Source of the DNA: an uncultured Chlamydiae bacterium
Lineage (GTDB): Bacteria > Chlamydiota > Chlamydiia > Chlamydiales > JAJFMB01
Direction of reading: 5' to 3'
Assembly: GCA_963696295.1 (NCBI GenBank)
Contig: CAVOJR010000001.1
Coordinates: 1,760,001 to 1,824,000 of the forward strand
Length of the DNA stretch: 64,000 nt
Shown here one piece after another: positions 54,257 to 59,982 of this stretch. The notes under the pieces are model-generated. The model saw nothing but the letters and a program-made list of their open reading frames with translations. It did no database searches and was not told the origin of the DNA. Made by a program: the position numbers and the translations under genes. The number at the start of each line of letters is the position of its first letter. Position 1 is the stretch's first letter.

Positions 54257-55096
54257 TTACCAGCTATTATCCTTTTCATAGCCGAGAGCGATCAGCATGC
54301 CGCCGTACACCTCTTTGAAGGCCGCCTTGTGATTCTCCTTAAAATACTTCTTCCATACTCCGGTTTGTCCGTTGCGGAAAGTGACATAAGGATTTACGGC
54401 TCCATCCGGTCCGTGGATTTTATGGGAAAGCTCATCCAGCCGCTCCCCGGTCAAAGAGATTCCAAGAGCTTGAGCGACAGCAAAAATGGCCTGTTGCTGC
54501 GTCTGAAGATCCCCGCCTCCATGAGTGCCGACAAAGTCTTCATAGCGGAGTATTATCGCGTCGGGATCTCTCATCCACCAGACTGCTCTTTCGGCAAATT
54601 TATAGAGGTTGAGGAACACGCGGCTGGTCGCCATCTGCTCTCCTAAACTTATAACAAACATAAGCTTATCATCGATGGAGGTGCTGTGGATCTCCTGCTC
54701 GATCGAATCCGACTCCCAAAAGAGCTGCGAGATGAGCACATCCCTCAAATCGCGGATCAGGATCAGCTTTTTGTACTCGGGATGCCTGTCCGCAAAGAGG
54801 GCGAACGGTTCGGTGAAATTCAGGTGGCCGGCCGGATACATATTTTTTTCCCTCCATTCCAGGCAGGTCCTTTCCAGCGTTTCCTCTTCGATGATATGGG
54901 GAGGTTGATCGTCATAAAAGTAAAAAGTGGAGAGCGCCGGAAATTCCGCTGACAGCGTGCCATCAATTTTTCCTGTAAGCATCGTCAGGAATTTATACAT
55001 CATATGCGTGCCCGACTTGGGCAGAGTCAGAATAAAAAAGTCTTCATCGGCAAAGGCTGTTGAGCAAAAAAGCAGAAAGATCAGAATTTTTTTCAT
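54257..55096 (-). CDS. PAPS-dependent sulfotransferase family protein with a predicted signal peptide
   Basis: 5'-PSB PKSGTH, 3'-PB RDLRD..IS, RYED, FR.GQ.G.WK; N-terminus MKKILIFLLFCSTAFA. Confidence 0.82.
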   Translation of the reverse strand: MKKILIFLLFCSTAFADEDFFILTLPKSGTHMMYKFLTMLTGKIDGTLSAEFPALSTFYFYDDQPPHIIEEETLERTCLEWREKNMYPAGHLNFTEPFALFADRHPEYKKLILIRDLRDVLISQLFWESDSIEQEIHSTSIDDKLMFVISLGEQMATSRVFLNLYKFAERAVWWMRDPDAIILRYEDFVGTHGGGDLQTQQQAIFAVAQALGISLTGERLDELSHKIHGPDGAVNPYVTFRNGQTGVWKKYFKENHKAAFKEVYGGMLIALGYEKDNSW

Positions 55097-56217
55097 ACTG
55101 TCAGCAGTTGGGATGCATGAATAATATCGACAATCCTGGCAGCGGCATTTCCGTCGCCGTACAGGTCTTTGGAAATTTCCCGGTTCGACATGCTTTGATA
55201 ATAGCTTTCCTCTTCCAGCAGTTTTGTCACCTCATTGACAATGAGCTCTCTGTCGTGCCCGACGAGTTTGGCAACGCCGGCCAATATCCCCTCCATGCGC
55301 TCAGAGCACTGCCGGAGAACCAGCACCGGTTTTCCCAGAATGGGCGCCTCTTCCTGCACGCCGCCGGAGTCGGTGATCACAATGTCCGCGCGCTGCATCA
55401 CTTGTATAAAATCGAGATAGTCCAGGGGTTCCAGCAGCAGAATATTGTCCACGTCCGACAGGAACTGGCGGCTTTGCTTTTGCACGTTGGGGTTGAGGTG
55501 CATGGGAAAGACGATCAGAACTTCAGGGAAATTTTTGGCTATTTGCAGGATGGCCCGGCAGATTTCTTCAAAAGGGGCGCCAAAGTTTTCCCGGCGATGG
55601 GCGGTCACCAAAATGATTTTCTGCCTCTGCAGGATGGCTGACCATTGGCTGTTCTCTTCTTTTTTCTGGAGCATATGCTGAAGGGCGTCGACACTGGTAT
55701 TGCCAACCCGGTAAATATTTTCCTTTGGGATCTGTTCGCGGATCAAGTTTTGACAGGCCAGCTCAGTCGGTGCGAAGTGCCAGTCGGCGATCACGGAAAT
55801 AAACCTGCGGTTGACCTCTTCGGGAAAGGGGTGGTGGTTGTTAAAGGAGCGCAATCCCGCTTCCACATGCGCCACTTTGATTTTGTGATAAAAGGCGATG
55901 AGAGCCGCGATGAAAGCGGTTGTGGTATCTCCCTGAACCAGCACGATATCGGGCTTTACTTCGCTGAACACCTTATCCATTTCACCCATCAAAGTTGCGG
56001 AAAGCTGAGAAAGGCTTTGATTGCTCTGCATCACTTTTAAGTCTTTATCGACTTTCAGGCCGAATACGGTGAGGACCTGCTGAAGAAGCTCCCGGTGCTG
56101 GCCTGTGCTTAGCACATAGGTTTTAAAATCGTCGCTTTGGTTAAAAGCTGTTACAACCGGAGCTAATTTGATCGCTTCCGGTCTTGTCCCGATGGCAATA
56201 AGTACTTTTCTTTTCAA
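55093..56217 (-). CDS. wecB: UDP-N-acetylglucosamine 2-epimerase (non-hydrolysing)
   Basis: GTRPEAIK, TGQH, QGDTTT, HVEAGLRS, PFPEE.NR, HRREN, TDSGG.QEEA. Confidence 0.95.
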   Translation of the reverse strand: MKRKVLIAIGTRPEAIKLAPVVTAFNQSDDFKTYVLSTGQHRELLQQVLTVFGLKVDKDLKVMQSNQSLSQLSATLMGEMDKVFSEVKPDIVLVQGDTTTAFIAALIAFYHKIKVAHVEAGLRSFNNHHPFPEEVNRRFISVIADWHFAPTELACQNLIREQIPKENIYRVGNTSVDALQHMLQKKEENSQWSAILQRQKIILVTAHRRENFGAPFEEICRAILQIAKNFPEVLIVFPMHLNPNVQKQSRQFLSDVDNILLLEPLDYLDFIQVMQRADIVITDSGGVQEEAPILGKPVLVLRQCSERMEGILAGVAKLVGHDRELIVNEVTKLLEEESYYQSMSNREISKDLYGDGNAAARIVDIIHASQLLTV

Positions 56218-58015: not shown

Positions 58016-59278
58016 CTATTTGGGTTTGTAAAATCGTTGGGTTTTAAGCCATTCGGGGTTTCGTTTGGTATATTTATCCACAACCGCCTCGTAAAATCCG
58101 TAAGTGATATACCAAATGTTGAAAAGCGTTCCTATGCAAAAAAAGGGGATCAAATTGATCCGATGGGTGGCCCCGTCGATAAGCGCGCCGAGGTTGACCT
58201 GATAAAAGGGTGCGAAATTGCCAAAGCAGGTAAAGGCGGCAAATATCGTAAATCCGAAGGCCATGGCCGCCAGGTGGATCTCGCCGTAAGCCAGCAGGGC
58301 AAAAAGAGCCAGCATGCCCAAAAAGAGGAAGGTCGGCGTCAGGTACACCAGCAGGAGGAAAAAACCGTCGATCTTGGCTACCAGGGAGATATAAGGGGAT
58401 TTGAAGAAAGAGATGAAATAGCGGAACATCGTCTGGTTATGCCCTCTGGACCAGCGGCGGACCTGGTTACCGCGGATTTTCCAGTCTTCCGGAACTTCCT
58501 CGTAACATTCGATCTGATTGGCGTAAATCACCTTCCAGCCGTGGATATAAAAGCGGAAAGTGAGTTCGGTGTCCTCGGCCAGGATTGAGGGGTCGAACCC
58601 TCCCGATGCATGCAGAAGCTCTTTCCGGATCCCTCCGGCCGTGCCGCCATACTGCGGGATGAGATTCAGAGTATATCTTGACTGCTGGTCGACCTGATAC
58701 CCTCCCGTGCGCTCTAATTCGAGCAGGCGCGTGAGCAAATTACTGCCGGAGTTAAGCGGCACGACGCGCCCCATAACGGCGCCGACAGAGGGATCTTTAA
58801 AATTGATGGCGATATTGCGGATGATGTTTTTGGGCATGATATAGTCGGCGTCAAAGATAATGATGATCTCCCCTTTGGCTATTTCCAGCGCGGCGTTTAA
58901 AGCGGAGGGCTTGCCGCGCATCCCCTGATACCGGTGCAACGGGCGGATCCGGCCAGGATATCTGGCGGCAAAATCATCGAGGATTTCTTTGGTCTTATCC
59001 GAGGAGTGGTCGTTGATCGGGAATATTTCCAGGCGGTCGGCTGGATAGTCAACGGTCAGCAGCTGCGTGAGGATGTTATTGGCCACTTTTTCTTCATTAT
59101 GCATGGGGATCATGACCGTGACGCTCGGCAGATCGGAGTCGAGGATTTCATGGTACGACAGAGGCTGCGGGCTGCGCACGCGATGGATGGTGAAATAGAG
59201 CTGGCGCACAGTGTAGGCCATTTGAATCAGCGTGAGAAGAAGCAGATAACACTTTAAAAAAGCGATAAAAAAAATCAT
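58016..59278 (-). CDS. Processive family 2 glycosyltransferase (polysaccharide synthase)
   Basis: IPMHNE, DHSSD, KPSALN, FDAD, AED, QVRRW (D,D,D,QxxRW); N- and C-terminal TMs. Confidence 0.9.
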   Translation of the reverse strand: MIFFIAFLKCYLLLLTLIQMAYTVRQLYFTIHRVRSPQPLSYHEILDSDLPSVTVMIPMHNEEKVANNILTQLLTVDYPADRLEIFPINDHSSDKTKEILDDFAARYPGRIRPLHRYQGMRGKPSALNAALEIAKGEIIIIFDADYIMPKNIIRNIAINFKDPSVGAVMGRVVPLNSGSNLLTRLLELERTGGYQVDQQSRYTLNLIPQYGGTAGGIRKELLHASGGFDPSILAEDTELTFRFYIHGWKVIYANQIECYEEVPEDWKIRGNQVRRWSRGHNQTMFRYFISFFKSPYISLVAKIDGFFLLLVYLTPTFLFLGMLALFALLAYGEIHLAAMAFGFTIFAAFTCFGNFAPFYQVNLGALIDGATHRINLIPFFCIGTLFNIWYITYGFYEAVVDKYTKRNPEWLKTQRFYKPK

Positions 59279-59982
59279 CTGTTAAAACGACTCGTATAGA
59301 AGGCGAAAAAGGAAACAAGATACACCAAATTCAAATATGGGCCAAAGATAAAAAACATAATCGGCGTTAAAACGAAGGATCCTTTGAGCAAAATATAGAT
59401 GCTGAAGGTGTATTTGAAGAGGCTTAAAGTCATGGTCAGCAACATCAGGCAGACCATAAATCCGAATTTGCTGAATAAATTCGCGTTTGTTTGTAAAAGC
59501 AGGCCGCTCAACATCAAAGGAAACATCAGCCAAAAAAAGACCTCCAGCTTCATATTGATCTCGGCAAAAGAGCCGATCGTGTAGGGAAATGCTGTTGGAA
59601 AAAGGAGGAGGATCAAAGAGGCGGCTAAAGTGGCGGCGCCAAGAAAGTAAACGATGAATTTATAGGGGATTTGCCAATGGCTTTTATAGGCGGCAAAAAG
59701 AGTCAAACCCGAAAATCCCGCCCACAGAAGCTTGATCTTGGTCGTCGGCTCGCCCCCTGAGCAGGCGAGATAGCTGATCTGCTGCTGAAAAAGGCTGGAG
59801 TGTAAGATGCGGCAATTGCAGTCCGGGAGGAGTTTTAACAGAATCTGCCTGGCAATCTGGTTCATGTAAAGGGAGGCTTCGGAAAACCGCCAAAAAAAGA
59901 GGGCCAGGAAGGGCAAAGCGATCAGGCAAAACTCAATCACCATCGGCACGCCAGTTTTTAGTCGCTTCTCCATCACTTCCAT
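59275..59982 (-). CDS. Polytopic membrane protein, first gene of the GT2 operon
   Basis: About 6-7 hydrophobic helices; GAGGA Shine-Dalgarno; 4-nt overlap with the GT2 gene. Confidence 0.7.
   Translation of the reverse strand: MEVMEKRLKTGVPMVIEFCLIALPFLALFFWRFSEASLYMNQIARQILLKLLPDCNCRILHSSLFQQQISYLACSGGEPTTKIKLLWAGFSGLTLFAAYKSHWQIPYKFIVYFLGAATLAASLILLLFPTAFPYTIGSFAEINMKLEVFFWLMFPLMLSGLLLQTNANLFSKFGFMVCLMLLTMTLSLFKYTFSIYILLKGSFVLTPIMFFIFGPYLNLVYLVSFFAFYTSRFNR

Follow-up and report, generated by a model that had tools for sequence, protein, structure and literature searches.

We analysed a 64-kb window, the whole stretch of DNA considered here, from the 3.43 Mb genome (two contigs, 97% complete; labelled G000) of an uncultured Chlamydiae bacterium. 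A block of six minus-strand open reading frames (ORFs) at 54257-59982, none of them with a broken frame as read from the sequence (Table 1), had been regarded in a preliminary description as a synthase-dependent exopolysaccharide operon that may produce a sulfated glycan containing N-acetylmannosamine (ManNAc). The reported arrangement of genes that overlap or lie at most 6 nt apart was confirmed by the ORFs and by reading of the junctions, and the family calls for the glycosyltransferase family 2 (GT2) protein, the beta-helix protein, the YaiO barrel, WecB and the sulfotransferase were borne out by Pfam and NCBIfam scores.

Table 1 Genes of the six-gene block and the candidate promoter preceding it (window coordinates)
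Feature	Position	Strand	Characteristics
P0001, polytopic membrane protein, 235 aa	59275..59982	-	No Pfam/NCBIfam family; some six helices plus an extramembrane beta-hairpin
P0002, GT2 glycosyltransferase, 420 aa	58016..59278	-	PF13641; D,D,D,QxxRW; no PilZ; predicted polymerase/translocase
P0003, N-anchored tandem bactofilin-fold beta-helix protein, 334 aa	57005..58009	-	PF04519; predicted cytoplasmic
P0004, YaiO-family outer-membrane beta-barrel, 265 aa	56218..57015	-	TIGR04390; TPR-less, with signal peptide and C-terminal Phe
P0005, WecB, non-hydrolysing UDP-N-acetylglucosamine (UDP-GlcNAc) 2-epimerase, 374 aa, TTG start	55093..56217	-	TIGR00236; single genome copy
P0006, signal-peptide-bearing 3'-phosphoadenosine 5'-phosphosulfate (PAPS)-type sulfotransferase, 279 aa	54257..55096	-	PF00685; K27 (PKSGT), H91, R115/S123 (RDLRDVLIS)
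Candidate promoter TTCATA-17-TATATT (9/12 matches) and GAGGA ribosome-binding site	59983..60031	-	Weak; 5' of first gene

Overlaps of 4 nt (ATGA) join the membrane protein gene to the GT2 gene and wecB to the sulfotransferase gene. The GT2 and beta-helix genes are separated by 6 nt, the beta-helix and YaiO genes overlap by 11 nt, and the TAA of the YaiO gene is followed directly (0 nt) by the TTG start of wecB. Because about 42% of the same-strand junctions in the genome are equally tight (708/1679 at 10 nt or less, an over-estimate since first-start ORFs were used), any one overlap is weak evidence. Promoter-like sites numbered 10, compared with 6.5 +/- 2.3 expected from shuffled sequences.

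The GT2 protein P0002 matches PF13641 with 112 bits and carries D90, D143xD145, D236 and Q272VRRW276, the residues of a D,D,D,QxxRW signature that is invariant across 28 GT2 sequences. Its topology comprises an N-terminal transmembrane (TM) helix, a GT-A domain and three to four C-terminal hydrophobic segments, and we infer that it may act as a processive polymerase/translocase. The best NCBIfam match is PgaC/IcaA (TIGR03937), at 124 bits against a cut-off of 422. No PilZ domain was matched in a Pfam scan of the six operon proteins, and no GGDEF domain, hence no cyclic di-GMP (c-di-GMP) cyclase, in the 97% complete genome.

For the membrane protein P0001, AlphaFold2 predicts six long helices and a beta-hairpin with a mean confidence score (pLDDT) of 92.6. 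Comparison with the PDB gave no sequence match at E <= 10 and no Foldseek match at E <= 0.001, and the best VIA match (Z 8.4 across 53 residues) reflects generic helices. A relationship to exosortase K was suggested by an Atlas lead of 0.79, which was sub-threshold and was rejected; the family has no near-invariant Cys or His.

P0003 exceeds the cut-off of the Bactofilin model PF04519 (44.5 bits; cut-off 27.9), and its predicted fold (pLDDT 89.4) consists of two beta-helical blocks behind a single N-terminal helix. The clearest structural match is the bactofilin BacA (2n3d; Foldseek probability 0.97, TM-score 0.77 over the target, root-mean-square deviation 2.4, E 1.0), in agreement with the Atlas lookup. 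We also considered a hexapeptide acetyltransferase and discarded it, the left-handed beta-helix matches being only weak and the fold search preferring bactofilin. Among 39 sequences the number of positive charges around the anchor averages 0.1 before and 4.3 after it, and three fusion proteins place a second TM segment between the beta-helix and a DHHW acetyltransferase-like domain. The beta-helix protein is therefore predicted to be cytoplasmic, serving as a scaffold and not as a periplasmic guide.

P0004 was assigned from sequence to the YaiO family (TIGR04390, 120.7 bits; cut-off 32); in E. coli the GT2 gene yaiP lies near yaiO. P0005 scores 454 bits with the WecB model TIGR00236 (cut-off 210), and no WecG/TagA protein, which would be an alternative user of UDP-ManNAc, was found in the genome.

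Relatives of the GT2 number in the thousands, and the best-matching ones beyond its own cluster are 52-58% identical. Gene content around it was determined by six-frame profile searches of the best 80 of 573 confirmed GTDB stretches, with 41 of the 80 loci spanning at least 17 kb. The cassette occurs in at least ten phyla, among them Nitrospirota, Thermodesulfobacteriota, Bacillota, Aquificota, Fibrobacterota, Cloacimonadota, Acidobacteriota and Zixibacteria. Across these best 80 loci the GT2 is accompanied by the membrane protein in 77, the beta-helix protein in 76, WecB in 49 and YaiO in 44, and the order membrane protein-GT2-beta-helix is nearly always kept. These data support a five-gene core that is a conserved unit with synthase-dependent anatomy and a link to WecB; the earlier view of a synthase-dependent exopolysaccharide operon is thus supported for the first five genes and not supported for the sulfotransferase as a member. 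No published description of the cassette, or of the chlamydial sulfotransferase family treated below, was found in open PMC and bioRxiv at the level of titles and abstracts.

One or two NodB/CE4-like proteins are encoded in 36 of the 44 loci with YaiO; the long form matches PF01522 weakly (26 bits) and the short form is tied in by BLAST clustering alone. The 21-22 loci with VTC, DUF4956 and CotH genes come mostly from Bacillota and, with few exceptions, lack YaiO; DHHW genes are often also present there, and MBOAT genes sometimes. Neighbours of these three kinds are typical of polymer tailoring, and because CE4-like, VTC-DUF4956-CotH or DHHW/MBOAT genes alternate among loci, the tailoring modules of the cassette appear to be exchangeable. 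In some five-gene versions no tailoring enzyme was detected (e.g. L017, L040, L068 and L082). In the present genome the CE4-like profiles of the cassette had no match, and the operon contains no deacetylase.

The Bacillota loci lacking YaiO (L047-L091) carry VTC-DUF4956-CotH and DHHW/MBOAT genes as well as beta-helix-LRR-DHHW fusions. One of the YaiO-less cassettes (L090) was seen in an archaeal (Micrarchaeota) metagenome-assembled genome (MAG), which is possibly mis-binned. A gene for a PEP-CTERM-type protein adjoins the cassette in L020, L023, L034, L040 and L068, most of them without CE4-like genes.

Within Chlamydiota, YaiO was found in one of 401 genomes of the phylum and the cassette GT2 in one of 400 genomes of the order, in both cases only in G000 (one genome, G043, was left unscored in several of the phylum searches). 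Close relatives are known from metagenomes, with identities of 90-94% for the GT2, 52-70% for the membrane protein and 65-67% for the beta-helix protein, and three of these proteins, encoded on contigs that are all 7311 nt long, probably derive from one locus. The rarity of the cassette in the phylum suggests that it was probably acquired, and the native codon use of the operon (71st-94th percentile) and its equally native GC content at third codon positions (GC3) argue that the acquisition was long ago. In a FastTree phylogeny P0005 groups with the WecB of another chlamydial genome, G138 (support 97); neither this tree nor the quick IQ-TREE run for the sulfotransferases was used to name a donor. 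The G138 wecB follows a TPR-protein gene and one for an NfrB-like GT2 (NF008411, 444 bits, under the full-length cut-off) and marks a second synthase-WecB locus in the phylum, of the NfrAB/WecB type and unrelated to the cassette, so that a synthase cassette is rare in Chlamydiota and not unique. The three genes stand in a row at L194:4864-10796 (G138:C82), accompanied by a divergent DUF2334 gene.

The sixth protein, P0006, matches PF00685 (38.8 bits; cut-off 22) and has a signal-peptide-like N-terminus, as judged from sequence and hydropathy. Part of a published account gives the lysine of the 5'-phosphosulfate-binding (PSB) motif, the serine of the 3'-phosphate-binding (PB) motif and a catalytic histidine as hallmarks of PAPS sulfotransferases (PMC11625862). 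In P0006 the PSB lysine K27, the catalytic H91 and the PB residues R115/S123 align with those of SULT2A1, the catalytic features being intact, and among ORFs of the family K.G[TS] is kept in 46/51 and RDxRDxxxS in 49/51. The best solved relatives are the cytosolic steroid SULT2A1 enzymes (2qp3 and 1efh, E 0.002). PF03567 was not matched, and the 18 PDB sequences found at E <= 1 include none with the name of a glycosaminoglycan enzyme. Pathogenic chlamydiae use host heparan sulfate; for the 'glycosaminoglycan-like' product of the preliminary description we found no support.

Profile searches detected the sulfotransferase family in 85 of 300 genomes of the phylum and in none of the 29 genomes of the small-genome family f36. 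G000 itself has six PF00685 matches and one fragment, all judged by eye to start with signal-like segments (five aligned), and deep branches separate the six copies in the tree. P0006 nests within the chlamydial family, its nearest relatives being protein P0157 (54%) and then tandem copies in G131 (40-42%), and it is a member of this resident family, apparently not a conserved gene of the cassette. Paralogues often overlap glycan genes, namely rmlB in G000, rmlA in G002 and glycosyltransferase genes in G120 and G192 (the neighbours were named from their sequences unless scanned). A role connected with glycans and a dependence on PAPS are therefore probable for the family.

At G000:C1:1203776-1207748 and in L123 (G002), the paralogues that overlap rml genes lie beside Wzm/Wzt-like ABC genes, an arrangement that may point to an O-antigen or capsule bearing sulfate; the gene names are again those read from the sequence. 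L195 (G192:C32:3000-20000) contains signal-peptide-bearing GT2s, an FkbM methyltransferase, a WecB extended at its N-terminus by a hydrophobic stretch and two sulfotransferases. A truncated near-duplicate of one paralogue lies at G000:C1:948033-948269, and the intact copy some 9 kb away at 956956-957735.

Is the sulfotransferase linked to the cassette elsewhere? All six genes had been taken for one polymerise-modify-export machine, and linkage of the sulfotransferase to the cluster in other genomes had been named beforehand as its test. A profile of chlamydial homologues found a sulfotransferase in 0/80 cassette loci, a sample that takes in neither P0157 nor the nearest cassettes of the chlamydia type (7-10 kb contigs), and the six genes do not form one conserved machine in these loci. 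No sulfotransferase family was matched (Pfam, E <= 1e-7) among 109 representatives of 133 same-strand neighbour ORFs of 150-800 aa. Metagenome scans for contigs with the chlamydia-type cassette and for the P0157 contig gave no match, and no piece of 150-250 nt from sequencing runs X1 and X2 spans the wecB/sulfotransferase junction. The contig of P0157 measures 5761 nt, unlike those of the close cassette homologues (7311, 7812, 7959 and 9693 nt); since P0157 stands for a 50% cluster with further members, the difference speaks neither for nor against linkage. Two other origins of the neighbourhood were tried and rejected: a sulfotransferase that already adjoined prpB (0/29 other prpB loci, within 1.5 kb on either side) and a chlamydial wecB-sulfotransferase module (0/24 other wecB loci, same distance). 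In G192, wecB and a sulfotransferase gene occur within about 5 kb of each other in a glycan cluster.

Synthesis of PAPS elsewhere in the genome had been proposed as a check, and none was found. No APS kinase (adenosine 5'-phosphosulfate kinase; 40/40 candidates scored), Sat or CysD was detected in the 97% complete genome, and tblastn of the genome with five Sat-CysC proteins of the phylum gave a best E of only 0.009. Because of these missing matches the genome is likely unable to make its own PAPS, so that P0006 would depend on PAPS supplied by the host. Full-length matches to APS kinase (E < 1e-10) were obtained for 28/84 genomes with the sulfotransferase family vs 19/215 without it, with 12 candidates scored per genome, many MAGs incomplete and kin not independent; 56 of the 84 family-positive genomes, about two thirds, have no APS kinase match. 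In G131 and G133 a Sat-CysC PAPS synthase that begins with a signal-like segment adjoins the nearest chlamydial relatives of P0006. G000 encodes four TLC/NTT nucleotide translocases.

Sat-CysC PAPS synthases of the phylum (L128, L129, L131, L132, L133:11780-13477, L134:9943-11658) show signal-peptide-like starts and often stand beside exported sulfotransferases, of which G131 has five in tandem. An apparent glucose-6-phosphate dehydrogenase with a signal-like segment, recognised by eye, is encoded at L134:7179-8804.

In the scheme that we favour, WecB would convert UDP-GlcNAc to UDP-ManNAc, as is the function of its family, and the GT2 would add N-acetylhexosamine units and thread the chain through a channel shared with the six-helix membrane protein. 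The bactofilin-fold protein would be a cytoplasmic scaffold anchored next to the synthase, and the YaiO barrel would pass the chain across the outer membrane, with both c-di-GMP control and deacetylase-like tailoring absent. The sulfotransferase would act outside the cytoplasm with host-derived PAPS, as would its five paralogues. On this reading, which we judge about evenly balanced between right and wrong, the first five genes are an old acquired cassette that polymerises and exports a ManNAc surface glycan, and the sixth is an appended resident gene for an exported sulfotransferase whose acceptor is more likely something else. That the cassette makes an exported polymer is quite probable, and a ManNAc content of that polymer is likely; its sulfation by P0006 falls somewhat short of an even chance if there is such a polymer, and is rather doubtful overall.

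Several observations weigh against this reading. The best PDB sequence match of the GT2 family profile is 6yv7 (E 9e-31, 110 bits; cellulose synthases reach about 61 bits), which we take to be a non-processive lipid mannosyltransferase. No TPR family was matched in the six proteins with Pfam and NCBIfam, and hence no periplasmic TPR scaffold. WecB is absent from 31/80 loci, some of them truncated, which leaves ManNAc unproven. The sulfotransferase gene has its ATGA overlap with wecB and its product a signal peptide that would put it where the chain passes, and the family recurs in glycan loci (the rml operon in G000 and G002, glycosyltransferase clusters in G120 and G192); for these reasons chance adjacency is not the sole reading of the sixth gene. 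The missing linkage, moreover, is a result for the 80 GTDB loci, a set without the closest chlamydia-type cassettes and P0157.

It is possible, albeit rather unlikely in our view, that the exported sulfotransferase was recruited as a tailoring enzyme of the cassette, so that the ManNAc chain is O-sulfated in the periplasm with host PAPS. The overlap with wecB is as expected for such a recruitment, but tight junctions are common in this genome (about 42%), and none of the 80 cassette loci has the linkage. The predicted signal peptide and the preserved active-site residues (PSB lysine, histidine and PB serine) would fit an exported, active enzyme, but the five other paralogues could be exported equally, and the best solved relatives are SULT2A1 enzymes acting on small molecules. 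The cassette does exchange tailoring modules, and the CE4-like pair has been lost in this copy. With respect to the sulfate donor, in both G131 and G133 the closest chlamydial relatives have a Sat-CysC PAPS synthase gene beside them, the family and APS kinase co-occur (28/84 vs 19/215, kin not independent), and four NTT translocases show scavenging of host nucleotides; against this stand a genome without PAPS synthesis and, to our knowledge, no route by which PAPS enters the periplasm. A foreign synthase machine joined to the bacterium's own exported sulfotransferase, giving a sulfated ManNAc coat by Golgi-like chemistry with host PAPS, is accordingly put forward only tentatively.

Considerably less probable is a GT2 whose product is a sugar or short oligosaccharide linked to a lipid, destined for a glycolipid or for glycosylation of surface proteins, with the membrane protein as a transferase or flippase partner. 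The rank of 6yv7 (110 bits) above the cellulose synthases (about 61 bits), a GT2 topology of only some four to five TM segments and weak matches to the exosortase-associated GT2 models TIGR03111 and NF053846 fit this alternative, yet the D,D,D,QxxRW signature is complete and invariant and the best NCBIfam match is PgaC/IcaA (124 bits). Likewise, PEP-CTERM genes flank five loci and the membrane protein has its sub-threshold exosortase K lead (Atlas 0.79), but no near-invariant Cys or His is found in that protein, and an outer-membrane barrel in diderms together with deacetylase-like, acetyltransferase and kinase genes fits a polymer. A silent or decaying relic of horizontal transfer, as might be suspected from a cassette present in one of about 400 phylum genomes and deprived of its tailoring genes, seems highly improbable given six intact frames, conserved catalytic motifs, native codon use and a GT2 identity of 90-94% in three other metagenomic proteins.

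Synthase-type glycan machines with this five-gene core form a large class that has apparently gone unstudied, and two of their subunits are unusual: a membrane protein without a matched solved fold and a tethered bactofilin. The minimal, c-di-GMP-free copy found here is convenient for expression. If P0006 does sulfate the chain, the product would be a bacterial polymer that carries sulfate and is built by a single polymerase enzyme. It would also bear on whether environmental chlamydiae, with 56/84 genomes lacking APS kinase, sulfate outside the cytoplasm using host PAPS.

The block is flanked downstream by prpBCD, with the start of prpB only 38 nt past the sulfotransferase stop on the same strand, and on the other side by a divergent lipoprotein gene and fatty-acid catabolism genes. 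The lipoprotein gene (59981-60517, plus strand) belongs to the CC0125/CC1285 family (NF047637, 40 bits, at the cut-off); its true start is probably 3' of the listed ATG, which would leave a short promoter region common to both directions. Directly after prpD, a minus-strand gene at 49426-50829 encodes a complete protein-tyrosine-phosphatase domain (PF00102, 172 bits) together with two SH2-like stretches (PF00017, 33 bits), a eukaryote-like combination that makes the product a candidate host-directed protein. Two small ORFs at 48828-49429 (plus strand) resemble what we take from the sequence to be a HicA/HicB toxin-antitoxin pair. An OmcB-family match elsewhere in the genome was below the cut-off (E 1.8e-6); together with the four TLC/NTT translocases it points to a chlamydia.

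Compared with known systems, the cassette appears synthase-dependent in kind, yet by family scores it is not a member of the NfrAB, Pga/Ica or Bcs systems. E. coli NfrB-NfrA-WecB likewise combines an inner-membrane GT2, an outer-membrane barrel and a WecB giving UDP-ManNAc, and part of the published account describes its product, the N4 glycan receptor (NGR), as a ManNAc polymer made by the GT2 synthase NfrB with WecB, of a composition that is proposed and not solved (PMC8669472). The cassette GT2, however, scores only 14 bits with NF008411 (cut-off 1170) and is 20% identical to an NfrB-like protein, and the locus differs in its short TPR-less YaiO, in the lack of c-di-GMP enzymes, in two extra partners of other folds and in the sulfotransferase. 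In PgaABCD/IcaADBC, as in the cassette, a compact GT2 of PgaC size goes with a small membrane partner and a pore in the outer membrane; these systems differ in family score (124 bits vs the cut-off of 422) and have a PgaA TPR-barrel and a PgaB/IcaB deacetylase that are missing here, whereas the cassette is linked to WecB and has a bactofilin-fold subunit. A precedent for a ManNAc chain made by a glycosyltransferase is the Listeria Pss exopolysaccharide, whose beta-1,4-ManNAc backbone, attributed to PssC, is solved according to part of its description (PMC13492145). The likeness is drawn at the level of function, and the Listeria system is monoderm, c-di-GMP dependent and adds galactose side chains. 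Sulfotransferase genes within a polysaccharide cluster are reported, in part of the account of Synechocystis synechan (xss), for a Wzx/Wzy system (PMC8205485); its cytoplasmic repeat-unit assembly contrasts with the synthase type seen here, with a signal-peptide-bearing enzyme and no PAPS synthesis. P0006 aligns with SULT2A1 (2qp3, 1efh) in the PKSGT loop, the catalytic His, RDxRDxxxS and the C-terminal G-x-x-G-x-W-K, but SULT2A1 is cytosolic and matched only at E 0.002, whereas P0006 has a signal peptide. Finally, P0003 shares with BacA (2n3d) a right-handed beta-helix and a PF04519 score over the cut-off, and differs from it in having two tandem beta-helix blocks, an N-terminal TM anchor and a fixed place in a glycan operon.

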